DNA of 64,000 bases from NCBI RefSeq assembly GCF_001677475.2, contig NZ_CP015229.1, one strand, 5' to 3'. Source of the stretch: Escherichia coli. GTDB taxonomy: Bacteria; Pseudomonadota; Gammaproteobacteria; Enterobacterales; Enterobacteriaceae. Below are positions 1 through 17,337 of the stretch, piece by piece. The first letter of the stretch is position 1, and every line of letters begins with the position of its first letter. The translations under genes and the position numbers were made by a program. The notes under the pieces were generated by a model that had not been told where the DNA came from, did no database searches, and worked only from the letters and a program-made list of their open reading frames with translations.

Positions 1-1
1 C

Positions 2-280
2 CGTGAATATCGCCGCCGCCAGAAACAACTGAAATCTGCAACTAAAGCAGCCATTAAGGCGCAGAAACAAATGGACGCGCTGGAAGTTGCTGAACTGCTG
101 CCGCAGATAGCCGAACCAGCAGCACCAGAATCAAGGGTTGTTGGTATTTTCCGGCCTGTGGGTAACACAGTACGGGTTAAATATCGCACCCCCGATGATA
201 AATACGAACCCGCTCGTGATGAATATCTGAATCAGTCACTGGATATTCTGGAACAGAAAAGACGTAAAAAAGCCATTTAA
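2..280 (+). CDS. A: Mu-type DDE transposase A, C-terminal fragment (5' end upstream of window)
   Basis: Frame open from window edge to stop at 278-280; C-terminus ...LDILEQKRRKKAI matches the MuA tail as recalled; B-like gene follows. Confidence 0.75.
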   Translation, partial: REYRRRQKQLKSATKAAIKAQKQMDALEVAELLPQIAEPAAPESRVVGIFRPVGNTVRVKYRTPDDKYEPARDEYLNQSLDILEQKRRKKAI

Positions 281-318
281 TTAACGTTTAAACAAAATTT
301 AATTACGAGGTTATTTAG

Positions 319-1278
319 ATGAATATTTCCGATATTCGCGCAGGACTGCGCACGCTTGTAGACAATGGAGAAACCACGCTGACACGCATCGCCAGTGAAT
401 CAGGCGTGGCCCTGAGCACAGTCAGTGGTTTTGTGAATGATAAATATAACGGCAACATGGAATCAGTCGGGCGCACACTGGAACGCTGGCTGGAAAACTA
501 TCACCGCGCAGAAGAACTGCCGGAACCCCCGCGTTTTGTGGAAACTGCAACAGCCCGTCAAATCTGGACAAGTATGCGTTTTGCTAATCTGACCGGAACC
601 ATTGCTGTTATCTGTGGCAATCCAGGAGTGGGTAAAAGCGAAGCAGCCCGTGAATTTTGTCGCACTAATAATAATGTCTGGATGATCACCATCGCGCCAT
701 CCCGTGCCAGTACGCTGGAATGTCTGACTGAACTTGCCGAAGAGTTGGGAATGAATAATGCACCCTGTCGCAAAGGGCCGCTTTCCCGTAATCTGCGTCG
801 CCGCCTGAAAGGGACGCAGGGACTGGTCATTGTTGACGAAGCTGATCACCTTGACACCGAAGCGCTGGAAGAGCTCCGTCTGTTACAGGAGTCCGCCTGT
901 ATTGGTCTGGTTCTGATGGGGAATCACCGTGTTTATTCAAATATGACCGCTAATGGCGACAGAACAATTGAGTTTGCCCGTCTGTTTTCCCGTATTGCAA
1001 AGCGCACAGCAATTAATAAAACCAAAGAAGACGATGTAAACGCAATTGCGGATGCCTGGCAGATTACCGGGAAAAATGAACGGGAATTATTACAGCAGAT
1101 TGCACAAACGCCTGGTGCGCTCCGCATTATGAATCAAACGCTGCGCCTTGCTGTTATGAATGCCTTCGGTAAAGGCGAACGTGTTAATGAGGATTATCTG
1201 CGTGAGGCTTACAAAGAGTTAGACCAGGACGTTGATGTTTCGATGCTGCTGGGTGTGCAAGGGGATGCTGAATCATGA
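319..1278 (+). CDS. B: Mu B-like ATP-dependent target-DNA activator
   Basis: 319 aa; GAGG RBS; Walker A GNPGVGKS and VIVDEADHL; N-terminus [14 protein letters not shown] as in Mu B. Confidence 0.9.
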
Positions 1279-1502
1279 TGTCACGGAATATCAAAATGGC
1301 AACGGAAGTAAAGAGCTGGTTACAGGAGCGCGGCAGCCACGTCAACGAATCCTGGCTGGGCGTGGCCCGCCCGGTGCTTGAAATCACCTGCCCACCACCG
1401 GAGCTTGTCAGGAATGCTGTCAGGATTATGGAGCGTAAATCAGGGGTTGCCCGTTCAGTCTGGACGGCCCGCCTTAATGGTTGCCAGATTATCTGGCGTT
1501 AA
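1275..1502 (+). CDS. small early protein at the kil position (Kil-like by position only)
   Basis: 75 aa ORF; ATG overlaps B stop (ATGATG); position equals Mu kil. Confidence 0.45.
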
Positions 1503-1534
1503 TAACGGCTTATTTATTTGTGAGGAATAACAAA

Positions 1535-1804
1535 ATGGCAAAAGTAATCTTTGAATTTAACCGCATGGAAGATGTTGAGTTTCAGAAAAAAGGAGGTTTC
1601 TTTGTAGGAATGAGTGTGCAACTGGAAGAACAGTCTCCTAAGGAGCAAACCGGACCGCATGACGTGATGGCAGTCATTATCAAGAGCATGGCTCCTGAAA
1701 TTATTGAAAAAGCAACCCAGGAGTTGTTGAAGTCAGCCAGAGAACTTGGGCTGGAAGCCGAAGGCGAGTTATTCCGGTATAACCCGGATGCAGCTAAATA
1801 TTAA
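1535..1804 (+). CDS. hypothetical early-region protein
   Basis: 89 aa from ATG 1535 with GAGGAA RBS. Confidence 0.55.
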   Translation: MAKVIFEFNRMEDVEFQKKGGFFVGMSVQLEEQSPKEQTGPHDVMAVIIKSMAPEIIEKATQELLKSARELGLEAEGELFRYNPDAAKY

Positions 1805-1824
1805 TTCGCAAAGGAACGCTGACA

Positions 1825-2244
1825 ATGAAAGCCAAAATCAGAAACGAAATTCAGGCATTAATTCGGATTAAAGAGCGTAATAGCAATGGTGGAGACTTGC
1901 GCGAATTTATTTGCGCGCGCGAAGTTGAGGGATATGGCGAAAAGACTTACCTGATTGCATTCGACCATTACAGCATTTGTGCGCGTTATTGCGGGGAGGC
2001 GGTATTCCGCGCCATTACGTTTGGCAATGCCTTCAATGTGGATTTATGGGAATACGTCATGGACCGCGAATACATCAGCGCGTCAGACCCGGACGCACGG
2101 GAGCAGTGGAAGAACATCTGGCGCGATTACCGGCAAATGGCGAAAGGCTGGACGCAGGGGACGTATTCTTCCCTTGCCCTGAAAGCGGTTCAGCTATCTG
2201 TGCGGCATATGCTGTCGGCACGATTCGAACTCCCGGTGCACTGA
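1825..2244 (+). CDS. hypothetical early-region protein
   Basis: 139 aa; AAAGGAA RBS before ATG 1825. Confidence 0.55.
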   Translation: MKAKIRNEIQALIRIKERNSNGGDLREFICAREVEGYGEKTYLIAFDHYSICARYCGEAVFRAITFGNAFNVDLWEYVMDREYISASDPDAREQWKNIWRDYRQMAKGWTQGTYSSLALKAVQLSVRHMLSARFELPVH

Positions 2245-2260
2245 TAAGGAGGGCATCATC

Positions 2261-2548
2261 ATGATAATCCCTCGCAAAAGATGGTCACGTGAAGACCGGG
2301 AATTTATCGAAGCCAGTGTCGGGAAAATGACAGTTGAAGAAATGGCGAAAAAACTGAACGTTGCCACAAGCGCCCTGCGGGCACATGCCAGAAGGTACGG
2401 AATATCGTTGTGTGTATACAAAATCAGTGAGCACGACAAATATTTGTGTCGAGAACTTTATAAAGAAGGGGTGGCTATTCATGTCATTGCCCAAAAGATG
2501 GAATTAAGCAATCGGGCTGTATCCAGCGTTGTATACAGTGAATATTAA
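2261..2548 (+). CDS. hypothetical early-region protein, possible HTH
   Basis: 95 aa; strong AAGGAGG RBS. Confidence 0.55.
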   Translation: MIIPRKRWSREDREFIEASVGKMTVEEMAKKLNVATSALRAHARRYGISLCVYKISEHDKYLCRELYKEGVAIHVIAQKMELSNRAVSSVVYSEY

Positions 2549-2568
2549 TTAACAGGAGCTTTATTTAT

Positions 2569-3093
2569 ATGGCTAAACCAGCAAAACGAATCAGGAATGC
2601 CGCAGCAGCTTATGTTCCTCAATCCCGCGATGCCGTGGTGTGTGATATTCGCTGGATTGGTGACCTGCAACGCGAAGCGGTACGACTTGAAACGGAAATG
2701 AATGACGCTATTGCTGAAATTACGGAGAAATACGCCTCACGGATTGCGCCGCTTAAAACCCGTATTGAAACCCTTTCAAAAGGCGTTCAGGGGTGGTGTG
2801 AAGCGAACCGTGACGAACTGACGAACGGCGGCAAGGTGAAGACGGCCAACCTGGTAACCGGTGATGTGTCATGGCGTCAGCGCCCACCATCAGTAAGTAT
2901 TCGCGGTGTGGATGCGGTGATGGAAACGCTGGAGCGTCTTGGCCTGCAACGCTTTATTCGCACGAAACAGGAAATCAACAAGGAAGCGATTTTACTGGAA
3001 CCGAAAGCGGTCGCAGGTGTTGCCGGAATTACAGTTAAATCAGGCATTGAAGATTTTTCTATTATTCCGTTTGAACAGGAAGCCGGTATTTAA
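2569..3093 (+). CDS. gam: Gam host-nuclease inhibitor (DNA end-binding)
   Basis: 174 aa, same length as Mu Gam; MAKPAKRI...IIPFEQEAGI closely matches Mu Gam as recalled. Confidence 0.9.
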   Translation: MAKPAKRIRNAAAAYVPQSRDAVVCDIRWIGDLQREAVRLETEMNDAIAEITEKYASRIAPLKTRIETLSKGVQGWCEANRDELTNGGKVKTANLVTGDVSWRQRPPSVSIRGVDAVMETLERLGLQRFIRTKQEINKEAILLEPKAVAGVAGITVKSGIEDFSIIPFEQEAGI

Positions 3094-3191
3094 TACCACC
3101 ACGAATATTTAATTAGTTCACTTTCTTTTAATTATGGCGCGATGCGTCAGGGGATTGCTCGCGCCTGAATCTGATATACGGGATATAAAAA

Positions 3192-3734
3192 ATGATTAAT
3201 ACAAAAGTTCTGAGCGGCGTCAGCACATTATTACAGGTTTACGGGCGTCTGACCTGCGGCGTACTGGCTGAAAAAATGAAGATGCCACCTTCCTCAATGG
3301 TGTATTTCCTGCGTGATGCGGTTGATGCCGGAGTTCTCACTGAATGCAACGGATTTTATGACGTTCCGCGCCCTCGTCCGACGCCGCCAGTAATACGAAA
3401 CGCAACAACGGAGCACCCCGATGTTGATGATGCTCAATGGTGCGCGTTCCGCCGCTCTTTGCCCTGGCTGGAAGGCAATGCCATTCCGGCACTGGCAAAA
3501 GAATTTGCGACAGGCGTACTGACCTGCGAGTCGGTTTACATCGTTGCTGAAGTGGATGACGATATGTGCAAACAGGGAATGCCCCGTTTTGTGATGGCTT
3601 ATATCGATATCCGGCTGGGTCGTTTTATTTGTGGCTCCAGTGGCTGGAATATCACCGACCACATCCTGCGCTATCTCATTCTTGATTATTCACCAGCTCC
3701 GGCAGCAACACAGGAAGTCAGTGAACATGATTAA
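3192..3734 (+). CDS. hypothetical early-region protein
   Basis: 180 aa ORF; weak RBS. Confidence 0.5.
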   Translation: MINTKVLSGVSTLLQVYGRLTCGVLAEKMKMPPSSMVYFLRDAVDAGVLTECNGFYDVPRPRPTPPVIRNATTEHPDVDDAQWCAFRRSLPWLEGNAIPALAKEFATGVLTCESVYIVAEVDDDMCKQGMPRFVMAYIDIRLGRFICGSSGWNITDHILRYLILDYSPAPAATQEVSEHD

Positions 3735-3909
3735 GTCAACTGGCTTTGTCCTGCTGGTTGGCACCTGCGGGAATGATGCCTGCGATGCCATTCCGGTAAC
3801 GGAAAAAATCTGGCCCACAGAGCAGGCATGTATGCAGGTGATGGAGCGCATACAAAAACGTTATCCCAGTGAAATCTTTTATTGCGAAGAGGTATTACGA
3901 AATGAATAA
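3727..3909 (+). CDS. small hypothetical protein
   Basis: 60 aa from ATG 3727, overlapping previous stop. Confidence 0.4.
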   Translation: MIKSTGFVLLVGTCGNDACDAIPVTEKIWPTEQACMQVMERIQKRYPSEIFYCEEVLRNE

Positions 3910-4228
3910 ACCAGAGAATAAAGAAATGAAATTCACACCAGTTGATATTGATGGCGTCATGGCTAATTTAAAGATGCTGGAACGTATGCACGATATCGTT
4001 AAATATGGTATTGAGCATGACCTCACCGCCAGAGAAGTCCGGAGCATTATTAACCGTGAAATGAACCAGGTGGAAGCTGCCGTGGCGCTACAAAATGAAG
4101 CAGCCCGCGAGGAATACATTCGTCGCAGGCTGGGACTATCAAATAAAGATATTCTTACGGATGCTCAGATGGCTGAGGCTTTTGATATTCATCAGAATCT
4201 TGGTCTAACAAACGGATGGTATCAGTGA
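3902..4228 (+). CDS. hypothetical early-region protein
   Basis: 108 aa from ATG 3902 with GAGG RBS. Confidence 0.5.
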   Translation: MNKPENKEMKFTPVDIDGVMANLKMLERMHDIVKYGIEHDLTAREVRSIINREMNQVEAAVALQNEAAREEYIRRRLGLSNKDILTDAQMAEAFDIHQNLGLTNGWYQ

Positions 4229-4421
4229 TTAGCTGTGATATTTGCAGAATGGGATTATTCGTTGTTCTCAATGCCGGAGCCTCTGCCGCTCCGCTTGCTG
4301 CGGCTTCGAGGATCGTTTTGCCTTCCTCTGCGGTAATCAGCCCCTTTCTGACAAGGAGTATCAGCAACCTTGAAGCAATGACATACCCTGCAACATCATA
4401 AGGCTGTTCACTGTTTTTCAT
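4155..4421 (-). CDS. small convergent ORF in early region (88 aa), unknown function
   Basis: Minus-strand ATG at 4421 with AGGA RBS about 9 nt upstream; opposite to all surrounding Mu genes; overlaps 3' end of 3902..4228. Confidence 0.4.
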   Translation of the reverse strand: MKNSEQPYDVAGYVIASRLLILLVRKGLITAEEGKTILEAAASGAAEAPALRTTNNPILQISQLITDTIRLLDQDSDEYQKPQPSEHP

Positions 4422-4494
4422 AAAAAGTTTCCTCTGTTTAGTGAGTGGATTCTGGCGGTGTTGCCGCACCGCCCCCTTTTCTGGAGGTACGATA

Positions 4495-5046
4495 ATGAAT
4501 CGCACATCCCTGATTAAATTAATTCATGTCGCCCGTCGTGATCTACAACTCGACGATGACACTTACCGCGCCTTTCTGGTGCAGTGCACAGGCAAGACCA
4601 GCTGCCGCGAGCTGTCCGTTGCACAACTGGAACGTGTGCTCGATGCCATGAAAGAGTGCGGTTTTAAAAAGCAGAAAAAACATCCCCGCCGTCGCTTTAA
4701 GGGGCATGTCACACCGCGCGAGAAGATTTATAAAATCTGGCAGCAGATGTTTCAGGATGGCTTTATCGCTGATGGCAGCGATGTCGCGCTGGACAAATAC
4801 GTTGCACGCCTGACGGCCAGACGTAATGGCGGTCAGGGGGTTTCCACGCTGGCCTGGTGTCACGGGGAATCGTTGCAGGTTGTGCTCGAAACGCTCAAGC
4901 AGTGGCACATGCGCTGCATCCGGGAAGCCTTTGCCCGACATGGTGTGCCGTTACCTGCAAGCCCATCCGGGCGGGAACTACGCGGATATGATGCACTGAC
5001 CAGTGCATATGCCCGCGCACGAAACAGCGGGAGAATTGCTGTATGA
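4495..5046 (+). CDS. gemA: GemA-like protein (Mu gp16 family)
   Basis: 183 aa; GGAGG RBS; position before mor. Confidence 0.75.
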   Translation: MNRTSLIKLIHVARRDLQLDDDTYRAFLVQCTGKTSCRELSVAQLERVLDAMKECGFKKQKKHPRRRFKGHVTPREKIYKIWQQMFQDGFIADGSDVALDKYVARLTARRNGGQGVSTLAWCHGESLQVVLETLKQWHMRCIREAFARHGVPLPASPSGRELRGYDALTSAYARARNSGRIAV

Positions 5047-5492
5047 AACAGATGAAAGAGCAGGATTTATTCGAAGACCTTCGGGACGACAGCGTTCTGG
5101 AATATCTTCATGATTACCAGGAAAACACCGCTTATCCGGCGTTACTTTCTGAACTGAACGCACTGCTGCGTAAAGAGCTGGCCCGGATTGGCGCAGACCC
5201 TGCTCATTCCCTTGAGCTGGTTGTGGCGATTTGTCGCCATATCGGCGGGATGCAGGTTTATGTTCCGAGGGGGAATATTCTGGAGAATCTTGTCCGGGAT
5301 ATGCGTATCTGGCGTGATTTTAACGGTCATAATATTCCTGAACTGGTTCAGCGTTACGGGGTGACGTATAAAACCGTCTACAAGGCCATCAAACGGATGC
5401 GACGTCTGGAGCGCAATAAATACCAGCCGGATTTGTTTTACCCCTCCCCGAACCTGCCTCACCCCGTTCGTCGTCCACCACGACGCCCTTAA
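5043..5492 (+). CDS. mor: Mor-like middle operon regulator
   Basis: 149 aa; ATG overlaps gemA stop; ...GGMQVYVPRG...YGVTYKTVYKAIKRMRRL resembles Mu Mor with longer C-terminus. Confidence 0.8.
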   Translation: MKQMKEQDLFEDLRDDSVLEYLHDYQENTAYPALLSELNALLRKELARIGADPAHSLELVVAICRHIGGMQVYVPRGNILENLVRDMRIWRDFNGHNIPELVQRYGVTYKTVYKAIKRMRRLERNKYQPDLFYPSPNLPHPVRRPPRRP

Positions 5493-5498
5493 TCAATG

Positions 5499-5522
5499 AA
5501 GCCGGTAAATCCGGCTTTTTTT
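5499..5522 (+). terminator. rho-independent terminator-like hairpin (AAGCCGG-TAAAT-CCGGCTT plus T7)
   Basis: 7-bp stem, 5-nt loop, run of 7 T; 7 nt after mor stop; identical copy at 13234-13257. Confidence 0.55.
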
Positions 5523-5577
5523 ATGCCTCCGGCACCATGAAGCAGACCACGTTTAAATCTGCTTCACAGGTGCTTTT

Positions 5578-6174
5578 ATGGAAAATCAAAAATTCTCCCC
5601 GGCCTTTGAACATGCGCTGAATTTCATTCTGCGTCCCGATATCGAAGGCGTCTATGCCAATGACCCCACTGACCGTGGCGGTGAAACCAAATACGGCATT
5701 TCTGACCGCCGCGACGGTGTGACTGACGGCAAAACCGATGTCAACGGCGACGGCAAACCGGATACCCGCATCAGGGATTTAACCCGCGAACAGGTTGCTC
5801 AGATTTACTGGCGCGATTACTGGCTGCCTGCCGGATGTGACCAGTGGCCTGATGGCGTGGCGATGTTTGTGTTCGATGCGGCGGTTCAGCATGGCGTTAA
5901 AAAAGCTATCAGGATTTTGCAGGAAGCCGCGGATGTGGATGCTGACGGCATCATCGGCCCCCGTACCCGTAAGGCCGTGAGCCTGTCCACCCCGGACTGG
6001 CTGCTGGCCCGCTGCATTGTCCGTCGTTCCCGCTTTTATGCCGACATCATCAAGTCCAAACCCGCCCAGGGCAAATACCTGAACGGCTGGTTTAACCGCA
6101 TGGAAAAGCTGACCGACGCCTGTCTGGAAATCATCGATACCCCTCCAGGCATCATGTCCGCCACGCGGGGGTGA
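5578..6174 (+). CDS. endolysin, GH108-like N-terminal domain plus peptidoglycan-binding domain
   Basis: 198 aa; motif EGVYANDPTDRGGETKYGIS typical of GH108 muramidases. Confidence 0.8.
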   Translation: MENQKFSPAFEHALNFILRPDIEGVYANDPTDRGGETKYGISDRRDGVTDGKTDVNGDGKPDTRIRDLTREQVAQIYWRDYWLPAGCDQWPDGVAMFVFDAAVQHGVKKAIRILQEAADVDADGIIGPRTRKAVSLSTPDWLLARCIVRRSRFYADIIKSKPAQGKYLNGWFNRMEKLTDACLEIIDTPPGIMSATRG

Positions 6175-6175
6175 T

Positions 6176-6427
6176 ATGGGCAAAGGCTGGGATGCCTCTC
6201 TGAAAGCCGGGCGGCGCGACCGCCTGCGTCAGGAGGTTCTGCACCGCATGGCCGGAGGTCCGCCCCCGAAACCGCTGGACTATACCGGCCATGACGGCAC
6301 ACACGCCAGCTACTACATGCGTGGCTGGAACTCCGTGGATACACGGGACATTTTCTGGCAGTGCCAGAAGTACAGGGAAAAATTCAATGTGGAAAAAGGT
6401 TATGAACAAAATTTTAAAACTGTGTGA
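6176..6427 (+). CDS. hypothetical protein in lysis region
   Basis: 83 aa; ATG 2 nt after endolysin stop. Confidence 0.45.
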   Translation: MGKGWDASLKAGRRDRLRQEVLHRMAGGPPPKPLDYTGHDGTHASYYMRGWNSVDTRDIFWQCQKYREKFNVEKGYEQNFKTV

Positions 6428-6812
6428 CTGGCTGATTTGTTCCCGACTGATGAGAACCCCATGGCCGCTGGCCGGACTGACGCTCTGTATGTTCATCATC
6501 AGCATGTTATGTGGCTGGCGATCGTTCGTGTTGATGTTGTTGTCCTTTGCCGGGGTGGTGTTGTTTTCATACAGCGCAAGCCTCGGGAATGTGCCATTTC
6601 GCCTGCTGCCTGAGGTCCGTTACCGGGCTTTTGGTCGCCACATCATCGTGTGGTCATGGGTGGTCTGGGCGCTGGGATATTTCTGCTGCGTCTTCAGCAC
6701 GCTGATGATGATGTCACCGGCACACCCGGTGTTCTGGCTGTGTGGTGGCGGTTGCGGCGCTCTGCTCTGTCTTCAGCGTTATCTGTATGGAGGTTTCCCG
6801 TGGATCCGTTAA
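6387..6812 (+). CDS. multi-pass membrane protein, possible holin-like
   Basis: 141 aa, several hydrophobic segments, Cys-rich; next to endolysin. Confidence 0.45.
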   Translation: MWKKVMNKILKLCDWLICSRLMRTPWPLAGLTLCMFIISMLCGWRSFVLMLLSFAGVVLFSYSASLGNVPFRLLPEVRYRAFGRHIIVWSWVVWALGYFCCVFSTLMMMSPAHPVFWLCGGGCGALLCLQRYLYGGFPWIR

Positions 6813-7408
6813 CCCTTTCAGGCATCGCCTCCGTTCTGCTGAAAGCCGGGCCGGGGCTGATTCGTTCCGTCGGGCGCTGGTTTGGTGGCGGTACATCTGC
6901 CGCCGCTGACTCGGTGGCCGGTATGGTGGAAAGCGTCCGGGAAAGCCTGCCGGTGGCTGAACAGCAGCGCGTTCTGGAACAGAAGATGGCGATGTTACCA
7001 CCGGAACAACAGATACAACTGGAAACCCTGAAAATTCAGCTGCAACAACTGGAGGTGGAGCGGCAGAAGCTGGTGCTGGCTGACCAGCAGGCCGCACACC
7101 ACGAACAGCAGGAAACCATCCGCAATGGTGACAACGCCACGGACAGCTATGTGCGCCAGACGCGCCCGCTGCTGGCCCGCCTTTCCTGTTACAGCGGTCT
7201 GGCCTATGTGCTGTTGCTCTCCTGCGGCCAGATTGCCGGAGCCGTTGCCGGTGCCAGAGGTATCACGCTGCATATGCCAACACCGGACTGGGATATCACG
7301 CTGATGTTGCTTACCCCTGCGCTGGGCTATCTCGGCGTGCGAACCCTTGACGGCTTTGCCCGTTACAGCAAATCAAGCCGTCACAAAATGTCTGCGGGGC
7401 TGAAATGA
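6800..7408 (+). CDS. coiled-coil membrane protein (lysis or morphogenesis associated)
   Basis: GTG 6800 after GGAGG RBS; coiled coil QQIQLETLKIQLQQLEVERQKL and C-terminal hydrophobic segments; start uncertain. Confidence 0.45.
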   Translation: MDPLTLSGIASVLLKAGPGLIRSVGRWFGGGTSAAADSVAGMVESVRESLPVAEQQRVLEQKMAMLPPEQQIQLETLKIQLQQLEVERQKLVLADQQAAHHEQQETIRNGDNATDSYVRQTRPLLARLSCYSGLAYVLLLSCGQIAGAVAGARGITLHMPTPDWDITLMLLTPALGYLGVRTLDGFARYSKSSRHKMSAGLK

Positions 7409-7632
7409 CCGATGAAATCGACCGCATCAGTGAAGTGGTTCTGAACGAGCGTCAGTGCGTCGTTAAAGCCTGGCAGACGCGGACAAAAGAAGCGCCCCAC
7501 AGTCGGGGCTTCTGCAATGACTGCGGGAACGTTATTCCGGCACAGCGCCTTGCGGCGCTGCCGGATGTGGTGACCTGTATTGACTGCCAGCAGATGCGTG
7601 AGCGCAGGAGGAAGACATGTCCTGGGAAGTGA
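7405..7632 (+). CDS. TraR/DksA-family C4 zinc-finger protein
   Basis: 75 aa; CNDCGN...(17 aa)...CIDCQ. Confidence 0.75.
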   Translation: MTDEIDRISEVVLNERQCVVKAWQTRTKEAPHSRGFCNDCGNVIPAQRLAALPDVVTCIDCQQMRERRRKTCPGK

Positions 7633-7922
7633 TCCGGGCCAACTGGCCCATTTTATGGGCGCTGTTGATGACAGCGATAAATTTGCTTCAGCTGATTCTG
7701 GCAAAGACTTACGTCAAACGCGAAGAGTTTGATTCGCTGCGTTCCCGTGTGTCGGTGATGGAAGGTCTGGTGAATCAGCTCCCCGACCGCAATGAATTTC
7801 ACCGCCTGCAACTGGATATCAGCAACCTGCGGGGCGAAATCCGGGAACTGGGGCCATCCATACGCCAGGTTTCCCGCATCAGTGATTTGTTATTAGAGAA
7901 CGAGTTAAAGGTAAAAAATTAA
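7617..7922 (+). CDS. membrane-anchored coiled-coil protein (DUF2730-like)
   Basis: 101 aa; GGAGG RBS; N-terminal TM then heptad-rich region. Confidence 0.55.
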   Translation: MSWEVIRANWPILWALLMTAINLLQLILAKTYVKREEFDSLRSRVSVMEGLVNQLPDRNEFHRLQLDISNLRGEIRELGPSIRQVSRISDLLLENELKVKN

Positions 7923-8215
7923 TGGCGATGAAAGAGATCCTCACTGAAGACCGTCGTCTGGTGTTGCTGCGTTCCCTGCTGGACTGTGGCGACAGCGCGA
8001 ATGAATCCGTGTTGCAGACCTGCCTTCAGGCTTATGGTCATAAGGTATCCCGTGATGTGGTGCGCACCCAGCTTGCATGGCTTCGCGAGCAGGGGTTGGT
8101 TCGTCTGTCTGATGTGGGCGGCTGTTACGTGGCTGAAATCACCGGCAGCGGCGAGGATGTGGCAAACGGCCTGTCCAGCGTTCCGGGCGTTAAAAAACCC
8201 CGTGCGAGGGGCTGA
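7922..8215 (+). CDS. hypothetical protein, possible winged-helix regulator
   Basis: 97 aa; ATG at previous stop. Confidence 0.5.
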   Translation: MAMKEILTEDRRLVLLRSLLDCGDSANESVLQTCLQAYGHKVSRDVVRTQLAWLREQGLVRLSDVGGCYVAEITGSGEDVANGLSSVPGVKKPRARG

Positions 8216-8217
8216 GC

Positions 8218-8517
8218 ATGGCCCGAAAACTGAAGCCGTTAAGTCGCGGAGAACGGGCCGTCGTGCGGCAACTGGCGTACTGCCTTGTGCTGGCAGATAT
8301 TGAGCAAAACGCCATTGTCCGTGCATACGAACAACAGACCGGAAAGCCCTGGAGCCCGGATGCACCGGACAGCCCCATGAAACGCTTTCTGCGGTCATCA
8401 CCGGCATGTGCGCGGCTGTGGAAGCTGCTGGGTAAGGATATCCGGTCCGTTCGCGAAGAAATATACGCCGGTCTGAAAACACCGGGAACTGAAGACGGGG
8501 GCCGTCGTGAACCGTAA
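8218..8517 (+). CDS. hypothetical protein
   Basis: 99 aa; GAGGGG RBS. Confidence 0.5.
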   Translation: MARKLKPLSRGERAVVRQLAYCLVLADIEQNAIVRAYEQQTGKPWSPDAPDSPMKRFLRSSPACARLWKLLGKDIRSVREEIYAGLKTPGTEDGGRREP

Positions 8518-8654
8518 AAAGAATCCGATAAGTAAAGCGTCCCGTGATGAACTCCGCCGTCTGGCGCACAACCTGACATGGCGGGAAATCCAGAGCGGCG
8601 CGCTGAAATCTGCATACGAAAGTTTACAGCGTAGTGAGCAACAGGAGGGCAAAC

Positions 8655-9236
8655 ATGGAAAATGAACAACGCCCCACCCGTGGCCGTCTTTCCAAAGTGG
8701 ATTTACTCCCGGACAGCATCCGGGAGCAGTTGCATCAGATGCTGCGGGAAAAGCGGCACACGCAGGAAGAAATCCGCGAAGCCATCAACGCCCTGATTGA
8801 CGAACACAACCTGCCGGAAGAGATGCAGTTAAGCCGGACGGGTTTAAACCGTTATGCCAGCCGCATGGAAAAAGTCGGGGCCAAAATCCGCGCCTCCCGC
8901 GAAATGGCCGAAGTCTGGGCGGCAAAGCTGGGTTCCGCGCCAACATCAGACGTCGGCAGGCTGCTGATGGAGTTTGTAAAAACGCTGGCCTTTGAAACGT
9001 CCATGTCGATGGCAGAAGACGACAAACCTGTAGCACCAAAGGCGCTGGGGCAACTGGCGCTGGTTGCCCAGCGTCTGGAAGCGGCAGCCATGACCAGCCA
9101 TAAACGCGAGAAAGCGATCCGCGATGCGTTTGCACAGGAGATGGCTGAGAAAACCGAAGAGCTGGTCAGAACGGGTGGTCTGTCAGGCGGTGCGGCTGAC
9201 ACCATCAAACGAGACATTCTGGGGATTAGCGCATGA
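8655..9236 (+). CDS. terminase small subunit-like protein (Mu gp27 family)
   Basis: 193 aa from ATG 8655 with AGGAGG RBS; directly upstream of large terminase. Confidence 0.7.
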   Translation: MENEQRPTRGRLSKVDLLPDSIREQLHQMLREKRHTQEEIREAINALIDEHNLPEEMQLSRTGLNRYASRMEKVGAKIRASREMAEVWAAKLGSAPTSDVGRLLMEFVKTLAFETSMSMAEDDKPVAPKALGQLALVAQRLEAAAMTSHKREKAIRDAFAQEMAEKTEELVRTGGLSGGAADTIKRDILGISA

Positions 9237-10768
9237 CACAGATGAACACGTTCAGTGAATCCGATGTTCTGCTGCCGTATCAGAAACGCTGGGTGGCGGA
9301 TGATTCAAAACTGAAAATCGCCGAGAAATCACGCCGTACCGGGTTAACCTGGGCGGAAGCGGCAGATGCAGCACTGACCGCATCACTGAAGAAGGAAAAC
9401 GGCGGGCGCGATCACTTTTATATCGGTTCGAATAAGGAGATGGCCCGCGAATTTATCGACGCCGTAGCGATGTGGGCGAAAGCGTTTAATGCGGCAGCGG
9501 AAGAAATCCGCGAGGAAGTGATCACCGACGAAGACATGGACATTCTGACGTTCGTCGTGTACTTCGCCAGCGGTTTTAAGGTCAAGGCGCTGTCCAGCAA
9601 TCCGGGCAACATTCGCGGGATGCAGGGGAATGTCACCATCGACGAAGCGGCGTTTCATGAAAAACTGGATGAGGTACTCAAGGCGGTCACACCACTGACC
9701 ACGTGGGGCGGTAAGGTTCGCCTTATCTCCACCCATGACGGCGTGGACAACCCGTTTAACCAGCTGATTCAGGAGAGCCGCGCAGGCAAAAAAGATTACC
9801 GTATTCACACCATCACGCTGGATGACGCCTGCAGTGACGGGCTGTACCGGCGTATCTGTCAGGTACGCGGCATGGAGTGGTCACCGGAGGCCGAGGCGGA
9901 ATGGAAAGAAGGCCTGCTGCGAAATACCGCCACCCGCGAAGACGCCCTGGAGGAATATTACTGCGTCCCGAAAAACGGCGGCGGCACGTATATCCCCCGC
10001 TCAATGCGTGAACGTGCAGCCCGTGGCACCGGAAAAGTGTTGCGCTTTACCGGCACACCGGAATTTAACGCACTGACGGAAAGCCAGCGCCGGGCAGATA
10101 TCCGGGAATGGCTGGAAACGGTGGTGCGCCCTGAACTGGAAAAACTCCCACAGAACCTGCGCCACTGTCTGGGGGAAGACTTTGCGCGTTCGGGTGACCT
10201 GACTGTGCTGGCCCCGGTGACGGTGAACGACGACACCACCCGCGAGGTGCCGTTCCTGGTTGAGCTTGCCAATGTGCCGTTTAAACAGCAGGAGCAGGTA
10301 CTGTTCTGGCTTTGCGATCGTCTGCCCCGTCGTGACGGCATCAAAATGGATGCGCGGGGGAATGGTCAGTATCTGGCAGAACAGGCGGCGGAGCGGTACG
10401 GCGACGAGGTGGAACAGGTGATGCTGTCCGTGGCGTTTTACCGTGAAAACATGCCCCGTTTCCGTGCGGCGTTTGAAGATGATGAGCTGATCCTTCCGAA
10501 GCATGAAGACGTGATCAATGACCTCGGGGCCATTCAGTTACTGCGTGGCGTTCCCGGCATTGATGATTCACGAACCAGAGGCAGCGACGGTCACAAACGT
10601 CACGGCGACGCCGCTGTGGCCATTTTCCTGGGCTTCCTTGCCAGTAAAGATGACTGCCACCGTTACGAACTGCACCGTCTGAACCGCCCGGCGAAACCGG
10701 AAGAACGCAACGCGCGCCGCCAGCTGAAGCTGACGCGCGGCCTGAAAAATGAGGGAGGTTTACTGTGA
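9233..10768 (+). CDS. terminase large subunit
   Basis: 511 aa; overlapping ATGA start; Walker-like FYIGSNKE and nuclease-like motifs. Confidence 0.85.
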   Translation: MTQMNTFSESDVLLPYQKRWVADDSKLKIAEKSRRTGLTWAEAADAALTASLKKENGGRDHFYIGSNKEMAREFIDAVAMWAKAFNAAAEEIREEVITDEDMDILTFVVYFASGFKVKALSSNPGNIRGMQGNVTIDEAAFHEKLDEVLKAVTPLTTWGGKVRLISTHDGVDNPFNQLIQESRAGKKDYRIHTITLDDACSDGLYRRICQVRGMEWSPEAEAEWKEGLLRNTATREDALEEYYCVPKNGGGTYIPRSMRERAARGTGKVLRFTGTPEFNALTESQRRADIREWLETVVRPELEKLPQNLRHCLGEDFARSGDLTVLAPVTVNDDTTREVPFLVELANVPFKQQEQVLFWLCDRLPRRDGIKMDARGNGQYLAEQAAERYGDEVEQVMLSVAFYRENMPRFRAAFEDDELILPKHEDVINDLGAIQLLRGVPGIDDSRTRGSDGHKRHGDAAVAIFLGFLASKDDCHRYELHRLNRPAKPEERNARRQLKLTRGLKNEGGLL

Positions 10769-12336
10769 ACCAGAAACAACAGGCCGGGGCCGCACGCCGT
10801 CTGCTGAACCCGGCAACCGGTGAGGAAGACACGCTGAAAAAAGAGGCGCTCAACGAAGCACAGGCCCGTCCGCGTCAGGCTGGCGTGCGTCCGGCCTCGC
10901 CGGGCATCAGCATCGCCTCCGGGCTGAATCCCGGCAGGCTGGCAGGCATTCTGCGCAATGCCGCCAACGGTATCACGCGTGATTTTTTTATCCTTGCCGA
11001 AGAGATGGAAGAACGCGATTTGCATTACGCCTCGGTGCTGCGCACCCGCAAGCTGACGGTGGCGGGTATTGAACCGGTGGTGGTGGCTGCCAGTGATGAC
11101 GATGCCGACGTACAGCTGGCGGATGCCATACGTGCGCTGATGGAAGCCCCGCAAATCCCCGAGCTGATGTTTGATTTGCTCGACGGGCTGGGAAAAGGCG
11201 TGGCGGTCTGTGAAATTTTGTGGAACACCCGCAACAACCACTGGGTGCCCCGTGATTATGAGTGGGTTGATCCCCGTTTTCTGAAAGCCGAAAAGCCCAC
11301 TCTGCGCCGGTTCCGCCTGCTGACTGACGATGAACCGGTGGATGGCGTACCGCTGACACCGGGAAAATTCATTGTTCACCAGCCGCGTCTGAAATCCGGT
11401 CTGCCGCTGCGTAACGGTCTGGCCCGTCTGGTGGCTGTGATGTATATGCTGAAATCCTTTACCGTGCGTGACTGGTGGGCATTTGCGGAAAAATTCGGCA
11501 TTCCGGTTACGGTGGGGAAATACGGTCCCAACGCCACGGAGGAGCAAATCCGCGTGCTGATTGATGCGATTGCCTCCATTGCCTCAGATGCCGGGTGTGC
11601 CATTCCGCAGTCCATGCAACTGGAGATGCAGGAAACCGCCAGCCGGAATAACGGCGGCGCGCTGTTCCGTGAAATGGCTGAATGGTGCGATGCGCAAATC
11701 AGTAAAGCCGTACTGGGGCAGACCATGACCACAGATAATGGCAGTTCGCGTTCACAGGCGGACGTGCACAATCAGGTGCGCATGGACATTGTGCGCTGGG
11801 ACGCGCGACAGCTGGCTAACACGCTGAATGAATATCTGGTGCGTCCCTACATCGAGGCCAACTACGGGCCACAGGCGCACTATCCCCGTGTTGTTCTGCG
11901 TATCAGTGAAGCCGAAGATCTGAAGGCGCTGACTGATGCTCTGGTGCCACTGATTGACCGGGGGATGCGGGTTCAGGAATCGGAGCTGCGGGATCGGTTC
12001 GGCCTGGCGGAACCGGACGAAGGGGCTGATGTTCTGCATCCGGTGTCTGCCGGAATGTCAGGTGATATGGCGATGAACCACGAGCGCGTCGCCCTGAACC
12101 GGGAACACCCCGACGAACTGGCACAGATGGTGGATGATGCCCTGCGTGACTGGCAGAAAACCGGCGAGGCGTTCACAAACCCGGTGCTGACACTGGCGCA
12201 GGAATGCGACAGTTTTGATGACTTTCTGAAACGCCTGCCTGAGCTTCAGGAAACGCTGAACGCGGACGACTTTGCCCTGCAACTGGCGGAGGTGTGCTTT
12301 AAGGCCCGTGCGCTGGGAGACACTGGTCATGCGTGA
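10765..12336 (+). CDS. portal protein (Mu gp29 / DUF935 family)
   Basis: 523 aa; GTG start after GAGGGAGG RBS; after terminase. Confidence 0.8.
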   Translation: MNQKQQAGAARRLLNPATGEEDTLKKEALNEAQARPRQAGVRPASPGISIASGLNPGRLAGILRNAANGITRDFFILAEEMEERDLHYASVLRTRKLTVAGIEPVVVAASDDDADVQLADAIRALMEAPQIPELMFDLLDGLGKGVAVCEILWNTRNNHWVPRDYEWVDPRFLKAEKPTLRRFRLLTDDEPVDGVPLTPGKFIVHQPRLKSGLPLRNGLARLVAVMYMLKSFTVRDWWAFAEKFGIPVTVGKYGPNATEEQIRVLIDAIASIASDAGCAIPQSMQLEMQETASRNNGGALFREMAEWCDAQISKAVLGQTMTTDNGSSRSQADVHNQVRMDIVRWDARQLANTLNEYLVRPYIEANYGPQAHYPRVVLRISEAEDLKALTDALVPLIDRGMRVQESELRDRFGLAEPDEGADVLHPVSAGMSGDMAMNHERVALNREHPDELAQMVDDALRDWQKTGEAFTNPVLTLAQECDSFDDFLKRLPELQETLNADDFALQLAEVCFKARALGDTGHA

Positions 12337-13093
12337 AACCCTCATCCCGAAAGAGGCGCTGGCGTGGCTGAAGGCGAAGAAGCTGCGCCCCGGTTTTGAT
12401 TACCGGGATGTGTGGCGGGAAGAACACCGGAACAGCTTCACCGTGGCAAAAATGCTGCAACTGGATTTGTTGTCGGATGTGAAATCCCTTGTGGAAGACG
12501 CCCTGCAAAGCGGGCAGACGTTCAGCGAGTTCCGGGAGATGCTGCAACCGCTGCTGATAAAACGCGGATGGTGGGGCGTACAGGAGATGGATGATCCGCT
12601 GACGGGCGAAAGGCGCACCGTGCAACTGGGCAGCGACCGCCGCCTCCGCACGATTTTTGACACCAACATGCGCACCGCCCGCGCGGCGGGCCAGTGGGAA
12701 CGCATTCAGCGGACAAAGCGGGCCATGCCGTATCTGATTTATGAGCTGGGGCCATCCCGCGAGCACCGGGCGGAGCATGTGAAATGGGCGCGTCTGTGTC
12801 TGCCTGTAGACCACCCGTTCTGGCAGACGCATTTCGCCCCTAACGGCTGGGGCTGCAAATGCACCATCCGTCAGGTCAGCCGTGGTGAGTATGCGCAACT
12901 GGCGGCACAGGGCACCATTCACACCGAAGCGCCGGAAATCAGGACTGTCCGCTGGGTGAACAAACGTACGGGCGAAGAGGAAGAGGTGCCGGAAGGGATT
13001 GATCCGGGCTGGAACTACAATCCCGGTATAAACCGTGAGCAGGAGCTGGCGCGCCAGCTGGCGACAAAACAGGCCCGTTTTGACAGTGAGTAA
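12329..13093 (+). CDS. head morphogenesis protein (Mu F family)
   Basis: 254 aa from ATG 12329; after portal. Confidence 0.8.
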   Translation: MRETLIPKEALAWLKAKKLRPGFDYRDVWREEHRNSFTVAKMLQLDLLSDVKSLVEDALQSGQTFSEFREMLQPLLIKRGWWGVQEMDDPLTGERRTVQLGSDRRLRTIFDTNMRTARAAGQWERIQRTKRAMPYLIYELGPSREHRAEHVKWARLCLPVDHPFWQTHFAPNGWGCKCTIRQVSRGEYAQLAAQGTIHTEAPEIRTVRWVNKRTGEEEEVPEGIDPGWNYNPGINREQELARQLATKQARFDSE

Positions 13094-13115
13094 CCCTCCC
13101 GCCGTAAATCCCCCT

Positions 13116-13141
13116 GAAACGCATCAGAAACGCGTTTTTTA
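13116..13141 (+). terminator. terminator-like hairpin after F
   Basis: GAAACGC...GCGTTTT stem followed by T-run, 23 nt after F stop. Confidence 0.4.
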
Positions 13142-13168
13142 TTCTGATGGCGTGAATGTGCATTCTGA

Positions 13169-13210
13169 CGTTTTTGAAGATGCTGTGGCGTTTTTGAAGG
13201 GGTTTTGAAG
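13169..13210. repeat. three direct repeats of CGTTTTTGAAG-like motif
   Basis: Copies at 13169, 13189, 13202 between F and I. Confidence 0.4.
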
Positions 13211-13231
13211 GGGGTATTTCCCCGTTTTCAG

Positions 13232-13257
13232 TGAAGCCGGTAAATCCGGCTTTTTTT
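13232..13257 (+). terminator. second identical copy of the 26-bp hairpin plus T7 element
   Basis: TGAAGCCGGTAAATCCGGCTTTTTTT identical to 5497-5522; 50 nt upstream of I start. Confidence 0.55.
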
Positions 13258-13306
13258 CTGCCTTCCGCATACTGACCGTCGGTAACCCCAGACGACGGAG
13301 ACTGAC

Positions 13307-14263
13307 ATGCAACCGGAACTGCTGGCGCTGTGTTTTTCCCTGCCAGAACCCATCCCTGAGCTGACACCTGCTCAACTGCCGGAATGGCTCGAACTTGTCC
13401 CTGCGGGTGAGTTCACCGGGCGCGATGGCCGGACGTGGATTAACCGCAATCCGCATGAGGTGGTTGCCCGTTCGTCCGGCATCAAAATTCCGGTGGATAT
13501 TGAACACGCCACCGAAATTAAAGGCCCGCGTGGTGAAGATGCTCCGGCGTATGGCTGGGTGGAAGAACTGCGGGTGACGGACAGCAGCACCATTGAAGGG
13601 CGTGTTGTCTGGAGCGAGTCCGCCCGCTGGATGCTGAGCGAGCGCCGCTACCGCTATTACAGCCCGGCGTTTTTCTTTGACGCGGAAGGCGTAGTGACGC
13701 GCCTGTCCAGCGTCGGGCTGACCAACAAACCTAACCTGGATTTTCCTGCACTGAATACGGAGAAAAACCTGATGACAGTACCTGTGCAAATCACCGGCCT
13801 GCTTGGGCTGGCTGAATCTGCCACGGTGGACGATACCGTGGCCGCCATTAAACAACTTCAGGAGAACGAACAGGTGGCGCTGAACCGCGCACAGACACCT
13901 GATCTGACGAAGTTTGTGCCGGTGGAAACCCACAATCTGGCCCTGAACCGTGCCGAAACCGCAGAACAACGCCTTCAGCAACTTGAAGAGAAGGAAGCAG
14001 AAGCGCTTGTGGATGCGGCCATCGAAGCCGGAAAAGTGGCCCCGGCAAACCGTGACATGTTCCTTGCCACCTGCCGCACGGAAGAAGGCCGCAAACAGTT
14101 TGCGGAGTACACCAGAGGCGCACAGCCGCTGGTGAACAACGACAAGCCCAGCCAGGGCAAGGATAAACCCGCGCAGACACTGACCGACACCGAACTGGCG
14201 ATGTGCCGCAGCATGGGTATTACCGGGGAAGAGTTCCTCGCCGCTAAACCGAAACAGGAGTAA
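13307..14263 (+). CDS. head protease/scaffold protein (Mu I family)
   Basis: 318 aa; GGAG RBS; between F and major head gene. Confidence 0.8.
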   Translation: MQPELLALCFSLPEPIPELTPAQLPEWLELVPAGEFTGRDGRTWINRNPHEVVARSSGIKIPVDIEHATEIKGPRGEDAPAYGWVEELRVTDSSTIEGRVVWSESARWMLSERRYRYYSPAFFFDAEGVVTRLSSVGLTNKPNLDFPALNTEKNLMTVPVQITGLLGLAESATVDDTVAAIKQLQENEQVALNRAQTPDLTKFVPVETHNLALNRAETAEQRLQQLEEKEAEALVDAAIEAGKVAPANRDMFLATCRTEEGRKQFAEYTRGAQPLVNNDKPSQGKDKPAQTLTDTELAMCRSMGITGEEFLAAKPKQE

Positions 14264-14270
14264 GTAACAC

Positions 14271-15176
14271 ATGTCACAGACTATCAGTTCTGAAATCCTT
14301 CATGCACTGACCACCTGCCTGAGCGCCGCCTTTACCCGTGGACTGAGTGGTGTCGAACCGCAGTGGAATCGTATTGCTTCTGAGGTGCCGAGTTCGTCCG
14401 CCTCCAACACCTACGGCTGGATGAAAGATTTACCGGACATCAAAGAATGGGTCGGTGAGCGTCAGCTGGCAACGCTGGACGGTTATGGTTACACCATCAC
14501 CAACAAACTCTGGGAAAGTTCCATTCGCGTTAAGCGCGAACACATTGAAGATGACCAGATAGGTCAGTACAGCATTACCGCCGAACGCTATGGCCGTATG
14601 ACTGCTGTGTTCCCGGACAAGCTGTGTTACGCCCTGTTGTGTGCCGGGTTTAACACCCTGTGCTTTGACGGCCAGAACTTCTTTGATGAAGACCACCCGC
14701 TGGGCGACGGCACCTACAGCAACGTTGTCGGTACACCAGGAACGGACCAGGGCGAACCGTGGTTTCTGATTGATGAGTCGCAGGTGCTGAAACCCATCAT
14801 CTGGCAGACGCGACGCGCCTTTAAATTTGAAGCCCTGGACGATCTGAACAGCGAGCACACCTTCAAGAACCACGAGTTCCTGTACGGCGTGGACGGTCGC
14901 TGTAATGCGGGCTTCGGCTTCTGGCAGACCGCCGTCGGTTCCCGTGCAGCACTGACGGTGGAGAACTACAAAAAAGCCAATGAGTTGCTGCGGGGCATGA
15001 AGGGCACCAACGGTGAGCCGCTGGGCATCCGCCCGACCACCCTTGTGGTGGGGCCGAAAAACCGTGCGGACGCGAAGCTCATTATTGACGCCATGCTGGT
15101 TAACGGCGGCGATTCCAACATCTGGTACAAGGATGTGGAGATCGTGGACAGCCCGTACATCACCACCCCGGCATAA
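14271..15176 (+). CDS. major head subunit (Mu T family)
   Basis: 301 aa; AGGAG RBS; synteny. Confidence 0.85.
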   Translation: MSQTISSEILHALTTCLSAAFTRGLSGVEPQWNRIASEVPSSSASNTYGWMKDLPDIKEWVGERQLATLDGYGYTITNKLWESSIRVKREHIEDDQIGQYSITAERYGRMTAVFPDKLCYALLCAGFNTLCFDGQNFFDEDHPLGDGTYSNVVGTPGTDQGEPWFLIDESQVLKPIIWQTRRAFKFEALDDLNSEHTFKNHEFLYGVDGRCNAGFGFWQTAVGSRAALTVENYKKANELLRGMKGTNGEPLGIRPTTLVVGPKNRADAKLIIDAMLVNGGDSNIWYKDVEIVDSPYITTPA

Positions 15177-15210
15177 CCCGTCATCCGTAATCTGTAACCC
15201 GCAGTTAAAA

Positions 15211-15250
15211 GGCGCTGCGAATGCCCTTTTAACTGCCTTTTAAAAGGCAG
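15211..15250 (+). terminator. hairpin attenuator/terminator after major head gene
   Basis: 11-bp perfect stem CAGTTAAAAGG/CCTTTTAACTG then CTGCCTTTTAAAAGGCAG palindrome. Confidence 0.4.
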
Positions 15251-15254
15251 AGTC

Positions 15255-15566
15255 ATGAGTGAAAAAGCAGGAACCAAAGGCGCGAAAGCCGCAAAGAACA
15301 GCGCTGCACAGGAAAACCCGGCACCGCTGGCAGACGTTATTGTGGCTGACGGTCAGGCGAATGAACCACGTCCGGCTGAAGACCCGGTTGCTGTACAGGG
15401 TGACGCCCCTGTCCGGCTGAACGTCCGGGCCGTGTCTGAAAACGGGTTCTGGCGCTGTGGCCGTTTCTGGTCACATGCCGGTGAGAATGTGGCGGTGATC
15501 GCTGCGGTTGCCACCCGCCTGATGGCAGAGCCGAATCTGATTGTCCGGGAAGCGGAGAAAGGCTGA
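15255..15566 (+). CDS. hypothetical head-associated protein
   Basis: 103 aa; Ala/Pro-rich N-terminus. Confidence 0.55.
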   Translation: MSEKAGTKGAKAAKNSAAQENPAPLADVIVADGQANEPRPAEDPVAVQGDAPVRLNVRAVSENGFWRCGRFWSHAGENVAVIAAVATRLMAEPNLIVREAEKG

Positions 15567-16003
15567 TGGGGTACATCACGCAGGAAGACCTGTTACGCGC
15601 GGACGGCAATCTTGTCTGGAACATGGCGATTAACCGGGAAACCAACGGGCTGGACGAGGACAAAATCCGTCAGGCCATCAGTGATGCCGAAGCGGAAATT
15701 GATTCGTTTCTGTCCCGCCGCTACCAGCTGCCGCTGGGAGTGACGGAAATCCCGCGCCCGCTGCAACGCGTGGCAGTATCGCTGGCGTTTTACTGGTTGT
15801 CAGAGCGTGACAATCAAATCACTGAGCTGATCCAGAAACGCTACGACGACGCCATTAAAACCCTGCGTGAGATGGCGAACGGCACCCGTGACCTGGGTCT
15901 GCCGACGTATGCCACCCCGGCAGAAACCGACCACGGGAAGATCATTGTAGTGGGTGCCAATGCCCGGCTGTTCACCCGTAACAACCTGAAAGGGGTGCTG
16001 TGA
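15566..16003 (+). CDS. head-tail joining protein (Mu gp36-like)
   Basis: 145 aa; ATG overlaps previous stop. Confidence 0.6.
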   Translation: MGYITQEDLLRADGNLVWNMAINRETNGLDEDKIRQAISDAEAEIDSFLSRRYQLPLGVTEIPRPLQRVAVSLAFYWLSERDNQITELIQKRYDDAIKTLREMANGTRDLGLPTYATPAETDHGKIIVVGANARLFTRNNLKGVL

Positions 16004-17153: not shown

Positions 17154-17337
17154 GCCAGCGCGGGAAAACGTCCGTGTCCGTAAACCGGATGGCGCGCATT
17201 TATCCCCGGAAGGGGAACGTCTCGACGTCGGGGCGTACTGGCGACGTCGTGAAGCCGAGGGGGATGTGGTGATTGCTGATGTTCCGGCAGAAACATCCCT
17301 CCCTGAAACCAAAAATCAGAAACGAAAGAGGAAGTAA
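17134..17337 (+). CDS. small hypothetical protein
   Basis: 67 aa from ATG 17134. Confidence 0.4.
   Translation: MEQKLIKPARENVRVRKPDGAHLSPEGERLDVGAYWRRREAEGDVVIADVPAETSLPETKNQKRKRK

Follow-up and report, generated by a model that had tools for sequence, protein, structure and literature searches.

The lysis and packaging operon of a Mu-like prophage

The window analysed here is a stretch of 64,000 nucleotides from Escherichia coli (contig NZ_CP015229.1, assembly GCF_001677475.2). The gene under study, a small TraR-like gene on the + strand (7405..7632), lies in its left part, within a Mu-like prophage. Upstream of it, GemA (4441-5046) is followed by a Mor-family transcription activator (5043..5492, +; Pfam Mor E 3.6e-30), which is closer to Mu Mor (phmmer 2e-54) than to Mu C (1e-16). 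This is the single Mor/C homolog of the window, in which phmmer searches with Mu Mor and Mu C retrieved no second one. The next coding sequence is that of an endolysin with GH108 and peptidoglycan-binding domains (5578..6174, +; Pfam Glyco_hydro_108 E 3.2e-23 and PG_binding_3; PHROG 315), the first gene of the operon. It is followed by a Mu gp18 homolog (6176..6427, +; phmmer with Mu gp18 E 1.4e-33), by a membrane protein (about 6402-6812) and by a holin-like membrane/coiled-coil protein (6800..7408, +). The start of the latter at 6800 follows its RefSeq homolog; the protein matches PHROG 1544 (E 1.2e-57) and weakly Pfam GTA_holin_3TM (E 8e-4), and its counterpart in phage HS6 has been annotated as “holin.”

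Downstream of the TraR-like gene lies a DUF2730 gene (7617..7922, +; Pfam DUF2730 E 1.6e-29), whose product belongs to the family of the Mu gp25 releasin (phmmer with Mu gp25 7e-9). The function of this DUF2730/gp25 family has been described (PMC9239132). Next come a homolog of Mu gp26 of the VpaChn25_0724 family (7928..8215, +; NCBIfam NF050184 E 7e-36; phmmer with Mu gp26 3e-36), two small open reading frames, a small terminase subunit (TerS) of the Mu gp27 type (8655..9236, +; Pfam Phage_Mu_Gp27 E 1.5e-54; PHROG 426) and the large terminase subunit (TerL; 9233..10768, +), which is named after the RefSeq annotation of a 96%-identical locus. This succession of GemA, Mor and endolysin, then DUF2730 (gp25), gp26, gp27 and TerL, is also that of Mu and of Vibrio, Shewanella and Pseudoalteromonas phages, and the region can thus be read as the lysis/packaging module of a Mu-like transposable phage. 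The sequence-only reading had placed the gene among late genes, and this placement holds: the gene is found between endolysin/holin-like genes and terminase genes, downstream of a Mor-family activator.

The short intergenic region between the Mor and endolysin genes (5498..5577, +) contains a strong terminator-like hairpin (5498-5518) followed by a T run. The sequence found there after the Mor gene, aagccggtaaatccggcttttttt, closely resembles aaagccggttaatccggcttttttt, which directly follows mor in Mu, where Pm lies. We infer that 5498..5577 includes a Mor-dependent, Pm-like promoter for the operon of the TraR-like gene. Between this region and the TraR-like gene no consensus sigma-70 promoter was detected; within 4000-11000, this consensus is matched just once, at 4708-4736, a site of the GemA gene that precedes Mor. 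Since no separate C gene is present, the operon looks Mor-driven, as if the “middle” class of Mu had been fused to the lysis/late genes, and a single Mor-dependent operon combining the middle and lys/late genes of Mu is the likely arrangement. Taken together, the Pm-like hairpin after Mor, the missing C gene and the gp18 homolog in the lysis operon suggest a two-tier cascade (early, then Mor-dependent), instead of the three-tier cascade of Mu.

The right end of the prophage, close to which a mom-type gene is found, falls at 31919/31920, so that the prophage occupies positions 1..31919 of the window. The remainder (31920..64000) is about 98-100% identical to E. coli plasmids of roughly 75-112 kb and corresponds to a P1-like phage-plasmid, as judged from icd, KilAC antirepressor genes, ParB, isrK (34548-34626), a C4 antisense RNA (34671-34758) and genes for tRNA-Asn, tRNA-Thr and tRNA-Met (56546-58402). 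The transposable phage appears to have inserted in a gene of this P1-like phage-plasmid; no record of the plasmid or E. coli collections spans the 31919/31920 junction.

The TraR-like gene and its product

The gene starts with an ATG at 7405 and encodes a protein of 75 residues, MTDEIDRISEVVLNERQCVVKAWQTRTKEAPHSRGFCNDCGNVIPAQRLAALPDVVTCIDCQQMRERRRKTCPGK, the stop codon being included in the span given above. No earlier start is available after the preceding in-frame stop, and the ATG shares bases with the stop codon of the upstream holin-like gene (ATGA). At the other end, the DUF2730 gene begins at 7617, 16 nt inside the TraR-like frame. These overlaps indicate that the gene is part of a translationally coupled string. 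The TraR-like gene appears to share a transcript, as well as translational coupling, with the lysis and packaging genes that follow the single Mor-type activator of the phage.

Comparison with 12 related, intact prophage copies gave dN/dS values of 0.04-0.37. Purifying selection thus acts on the gene, which is a real one. An antisense frame of 107 residues (7381..7704, -) was dismissed, as the family and purifying-selection signals belong to the + frame. A GC-rich hairpin with a 5-bp stem, GGGCCAACTGGCCC, followed by ATTTTAT, is found at 7636-7649, 4 nt past the TraR-like stop and within the DUF2730 coding sequence. It was considered as a terminator and is likely a chance occurrence, given its 5-bp stem, its four T's only and its position inside a coding sequence, and because the frequency of such sites exceeds that of shuffled sequences by a factor of only about two. 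Frameshifted or truncated copies of the TraR-like gene also occur in several E. coli genomes (protein clusters P0014-P0019 and P0025). They keep 28-47 intact N-terminal residues, which are followed by out-of-frame sequence, and this points to decay in some of the prophage copies.

Several independent models were used to assign the protein to a family. Pfam PF01258 (zf-dskA_traR) matches residues 33-67 with 42.5 bits, for a gathering cutoff of 24.9 (E 6.5e-11), and PHROG 54 (“DksA-like zinc-finger protein”) covers residues 1-73 (E 2.8e-19). The NCBIfam model of the phage/conjugal plasmid TraR subfamily, TIGR02419 (C4_traR_proteo), aligns over its full length (3-66 versus 1-64, E 6.8e-16), with a score of 58.6 bits that falls 1.1 bits short of the 59.7 cutoff. 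The models of DksA proper remain far under their cutoffs (29.7 versus 289 bits for NF008045; 28.9 versus 115.5 bits for TIGR02420), and just their C-terminal third aligns to the 75-residue protein. A sequence search of the PDB returned TraR (5w1s/6n57) and DksA (1tjl) with E about 4e-6, the significant matches being limited to TraR, DksA and YbiI. The identity to F TraR reaches 35% over 72 aa, from residue 1 to residue 70 (BLASTP).

The sequence-only reading had described a 75-residue C4 zinc-finger protein of the TraR/DksA type. The open reading frame does exist, and PF01258, PHROG 54 and the PDB matches to TraR and DksA agree on this assignment. RefSeq already names a 97%-identical protein (cluster P0001) “TraR/DksA C4-type zinc finger protein,” and the window gene is thus an ordinary, already-annotated member of the TraR/DksA family.

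Functional residues and predicted structure

Four features define a working TraR homolog in PMC9239242: RNA polymerase binding, an N-terminal helix that carries a DxxDxA motif, a C4 zinc globule bearing R48/R49, and a helix at the C-terminus. When 1.84 billion representative proteins were scanned with HMMER, 429 proteins were retrieved at E <= 0.001. The residue counts given below refer to 105 aligned sequences, namely the window protein, F TraR and 103 hits of TraR length; a wider alignment contains 112 homologs.

The N-terminus of the window protein, read from its first possible start, is MTDEIDR, to be compared with MSDEADE in TraR. The counterpart of the DxxDxA tip is here DxxDxI (D-E-I-D-R-I, codons 3-8, 7411..7428, +), in register with D3, D6 and A8 of F TraR. 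Both acidic residues, which are required for the activity of TraR and lambda Orf73 (PMC9239242), are kept; D3 is found in 97 of the 105 sequences and D6 in 98. Position 8 is an Ile, a residue shared by five sequences only, the usual one being Ala (85/105). It is Ile or Val throughout the E. coli clade of the window protein, and I8 can be described as a minority state of the family that is fixed in this clade. P2 Orf82, which has no A8 either, remains able to bind RNA polymerase and to inhibit rrnB P1, if less well, and its weaker activity has been linked to the missing alanine (PMC9239242).

The C4 zinc ribbon (7513..7587, +) extends from C37 to C61 with the spacing C37-x2-C40-x17-C58-x2-C61, and includes R48 and L49. 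The four cysteines have the same numbering as in F TraR and are invariant in the 112 aligned homologs. So is R48, whose counterpart in TraR contacts the beta-prime rim helices (PMC9239242). In F TraR, activation and the contact with beta-prime Si3 both require R49 (PMC9239242). At this position the window protein has a Leu, which is the commonest residue (56/105, versus 31/105 for Arg) and thus appears as the family norm. E66 is kept, as in 99 of the 105 sequences. Compared with F TraR, Ile8 and Leu49 may make the protein less potent, or weaken its activating (beta-prime Si3) branch.

An AlphaFold2 model of the 75-residue protein was built from 112 sequences and is of moderate confidence (pLDDT 71). 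Helices are predicted at residues 3-27, 46-51 and 59-71, the first and the last flanking the zinc-ribbon globule. The predicted C-terminal helix (7579..7617, +) belongs to a block where pLDDT rises up to about 80; in TraR, the corresponding helix contacts beta Si1 (PMC9239242). The model reproduces the three elements of TraR (2-27, 28-57 and 58-73; PMC6970531). A Foldseek search of the PDB placed only DksA, TraR, DksA2, YbiI and chlamydial Dks chains among its ten best matches (probability 0.92-1.0). Leading them are DksA in RNA polymerase complexes (7khi_M, 5vsw_M), DksA 1tjl and TraR (6n57_M/5w1s_M), with probabilities of 0.98-1.0; the TM-scores are only about 0.5, including those for TraR.

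Both the sequence and the model thus designate the protein as homologous to F TraR and to DksA, with the length of TraR and its predicted three-part architecture: an N-terminal helix with the acidic tip D3/D6, a C4 zinc globule with R48, and a C-terminal helix. The initial TraR/DksA-family reading is borne out at both the sequence and the fold level, where all tests agree, and D3/D6, R48 and the predicted C-terminal helix are present.

Conservation of the gene and its position

The prophage region is found in 50 of 5,426 complete E. coli genomes, with a TraR/DksA zinc-finger gene directly upstream of DUF2730, and up to four copies of the 5-kb lysis/packaging region were counted in one genome. 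In other E. coli genomes (H67-H70), the right end of this prophage type adjoins unrelated host genes, such as fliH, alr and a T6SS vgr gene. Unrelated flanks and multiple copies are consistent with random transposition in the manner of Mu. A megablast search of positions 5000-10000 of the window against a phage collection gave no match, and this type of prophage was found only in bacterial genomes and IMG/VR contigs.

Broader sampling relied on 31 IMG/VR loci fetched by TerS similarity, mostly close relatives, whose ATG-start reading frames were scanned with a TraR-like profile; diversity was added by tblastn with the DUF2730 protein and by individual records. The profile matched in 23 of the 31 loci, the gene again being directly upstream of DUF2730, and these include lineages at just 55-57% TerS identity, and one more locus (L025) scored once the ATG-start requirement was dropped. 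Two loci are cut off upstream of TerS, and five, at 26% TerS identity, gave no match. A TraR-like gene directly upstream of DUF2730 was also observed in a second E. coli Mu-like lineage, in Klebsiella Kp4866-3, in two Vibrio lineages, in Shewanella MuM16-2 and in Pseudoalteromonas HS6. DksA/TraR zinc fingers at the same position have already been listed in the literature for FluMu of Haemophilus (HI1497) and Burkholderia KS10 (gp7). Six genera or more thus have Mu-like phages in which the gene and its slot are conserved, and the acidic N-terminal tip is mostly retained among these Mu-like copies.

Neither a TraR-like nor a DUF2730 reading frame was found in the regions examined of D3112 and BcepMu, which were taken as Mu-like outgroups. 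Because both genes are missing together, these outgroups cannot separate linkage from common descent.

Proposed function and alternative explanations

[quoted passage not shown] Experiments on five phage homologs of TraR have shown that they bind RNA polymerase, inhibit rRNA and r-protein promoters, including rrnB P1, and can replace DksA in a dksA-null strain (PMC9239242). The yield of phage is increased 3- to 4-fold by lambda Orf73 in a way that depends on D3/D6, and substitutions of these residues cut its in vitro activity and lower the yield 3- to 4-fold (PMC9239242). Because the family, residue and fold tests agree and five phage homologs bind RNA polymerase, an RNA polymerase function is the default expectation for the window protein. 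The sequence-only reading, which expected binding to the secondary channel and a possible reprogramming of host transcription in lytic growth, is supported in this sense. By analogy, it is most likely a small factor plugging into the host RNA polymerase and diverting transcription toward the phage.

The following sequence of events can be proposed. Upon induction, Mor would switch on the operon that holds the TraR-like gene. The protein would then bind the host RNA polymerase directly, requiring neither DNA nor ppGpp, and its N-terminal helix would enter the secondary channel toward the active site. The resulting shift in initiation kinetics would inhibit rRNA and ribosomal-protein promoters. 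Polymerase and nucleotides would thereby be freed for late transcription of the phage, with a greater phage yield, as observed for lambda Orf73. We hold it probable that the gene as a whole is to be explained in this way, by a Mor-switched TraR-like protein that binds RNA polymerase, inhibits rRNA/r-protein promoters and favours the phage.

Some observations stand against this explanation. The DxxDxA motif is incomplete (I8), position 49 is a Leu, the TIGR02419 score is slightly under its cutoff, and the structural model combines moderate confidence with TM-scores to TraR of about 0.5. Moreover, the tested phage homologs of known context are genes of early or lysis-lysogeny regions, and not of a late operon. 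Mu itself keeps just a degenerate zinc ribbon in the slot, so that one successful Mu-type phage at least can do without a TraR-like function.

The constant neighbourhood of the gene raises another explanation, in which a protein with the TraR fold would mainly work in the lysis cassette. Together with a DUF2730/gp25-family or holin-like partner, it would time or license lysis, its RNA polymerase binding being secondary or absent. In every DUF2730-bearing Mu-like phage examined, the TraR-like gene is indeed always directly upstream of DUF2730 and usually overlaps it, be it in E. coli (two lineages), Klebsiella, Vibrio (two lineages), Shewanella, Pseudoalteromonas or metagenomic contigs. In D3112 and BcepMu, the equivalent regions also lack both genes, and yet common descent of one syntenic module accounts equally well for such a co-occurrence. 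The slot of Mu keeps a zinc ribbon while D3/D6, R48 and the C-terminal helix have been lost; however, the acidic tip is mostly kept among the Mu-like copies, and the retention of D3, D6 and E66 in nearly all TraR-length sequences, together with the invariant R48, is hard to explain if RNA polymerase is not the target. As for partners, VP882 TraR acts in complex with the phage protein QisA, but the growth arrest caused in the VP882 system still requires the RNA polymerase-binding motif. One published model of gp25 action invokes an unknown partner (PMC9239132). According to the same paper on Mu lysis (Chamblee et al.), however, SAR endolysins from other phages are released by Mu gp25 as well, and the paper contains no mention of gp24, zinc or TraR. 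A main role in lysis is on balance unlikely.

The protein could also bind RNA polymerase mainly to boost the Mor-dependent late promoters of the phage itself, instead of turning off the synthesis of host rRNA. It sits in an operon whose expression it could reinforce, and F-element promoters are stimulated by TraR in vitro (PMC9239242). Activation by F TraR, however, involves R49, where the window protein has a Leu, and we regard promoter boosting as the main role as distinctly unlikely. It is compatible with the preferred explanation, inhibition of host rRNA/r-protein promoters in favour of the phage, and does not exclude it.

More speculatively, the TraR-like and DUF2730 “releasin” genes of Mu-like phages might form a conserved functional pair, through which the host RNA polymerase would be shut down or retargeted in step with lysis. 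Alternatively, the zinc ribbon might interact with another partner in the lysis cassette, independently of RNA polymerase, and Mu gp24 would be a pared-down remnant that has kept this second role. This reading is clearly improbable.

That the gene is a decaying or functionless prophage passenger, as the frameshifted or truncated copies in some E. coli genomes (P0014-P0019, P0025) and the degenerate Mu counterpart gp24 might suggest, is very improbable in view of the low dN/dS across intact copies, of the intact frame with the conserved residues of the family in the window, and of its retention across several genera of gamma- and betaproteobacteria.

The gene has little significance beyond its annotation, being one more member of a family with an established mechanism. 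The mildly new point is its late-operon placement beside lysis genes, conserved across Mu-like phages, whereas the four tested homologs of known context are early genes. This late timing, if functional, points to a reprogramming of host transcription at the stage of morphogenesis. It would also provide a natural set of motif variants for structure-function work (A8I, R49L, short C-termini and the degenerate Mu gp24).

Comparison with known systems

E. coli DksA (PDB 1TJL) shares with the window protein the zinc-ribbon globular domain and the C-terminal helix, which align (residues 14-72 versus 91-149), as well as the DxxD tip chemistry. In contrast to the small window protein, it has 151 residues and a full coiled coil, and needs ppGpp.

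F-plasmid TraR (PDB 5W1S, 6N57) is far closer in length, with 73 residues for 75. D3, D6, the four Cys, R48, E66, R67, R69 and K70 are in register, and the three predicted structural elements match. Both genes lie within a long operon of structural/assembly genes, and not in a regulatory region. The two proteins differ by their limited identity (35%) and by the replacement of A8 by Ile and of R49 by Leu in the window protein; furthermore, TraR is encoded by a conjugative plasmid and the window protein by a transposable phage.

The five tested homologs, lambda Orf73, P2 Orf82, VP882 Orf61 (TraR_VP882), VHML Orf8 and X. bovienii Gp34, are likewise small TraR-family proteins encoded by phages (PMC9239242). 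P2 Orf82 lacks A8, as does the window protein, and a homolog from a P2-like Klebsiella phage is about 38% identical to the latter. The genes of lambda Orf73, P2 Orf82, VP882 Orf61 and VHML Orf8 belong to early, lysis-lysogeny or replication regions, whereas the window gene belongs to a putative Mor-dependent lysis/packaging operon. Its position between holin-like and releasin-family genes is unlike that of these four tested homologs of known context.

In Mu itself, gp24 (Mup24, 64 aa, annotated “hypothetical protein”; L003 3525-3719) occupies the slot directly upstream of gp25 and has the same CxxC-x17-CxxC spacing. Unlike the window protein, it has neither D3/D6 (its sequence being MNEDQNRA), nor R48, nor the C-terminal helix. 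Pfam PF01258 does not recognise it, and its hhalign match to the TraR alignment is weak and covers the zinc ribbon only (probability 84%, E 8e-6). One gp24 variant has even lost the fourth Cys. Mu gp24 is thus probably a degenerate TraR-type zinc ribbon.

The closest parallels are found among the annotated genes of other Mu-like phages. WP_042856712.1 (from E. coli prophages), FluMu HI1497, KS10 gp7 and the genes of Vibrio martha 12B12, Shewanella MuM16-2 (p23) and Pseudoalteromonas HS6 (gp35) belong to the same family. They also share the same slot, in the order lysis genes, TraR-like, DUF2730/gp26-like, TerS and TerL. Judged by its sequence, the window gene is one more copy of these annotated Mu-like TraR/DksA genes, from which it differs in no essential respect.
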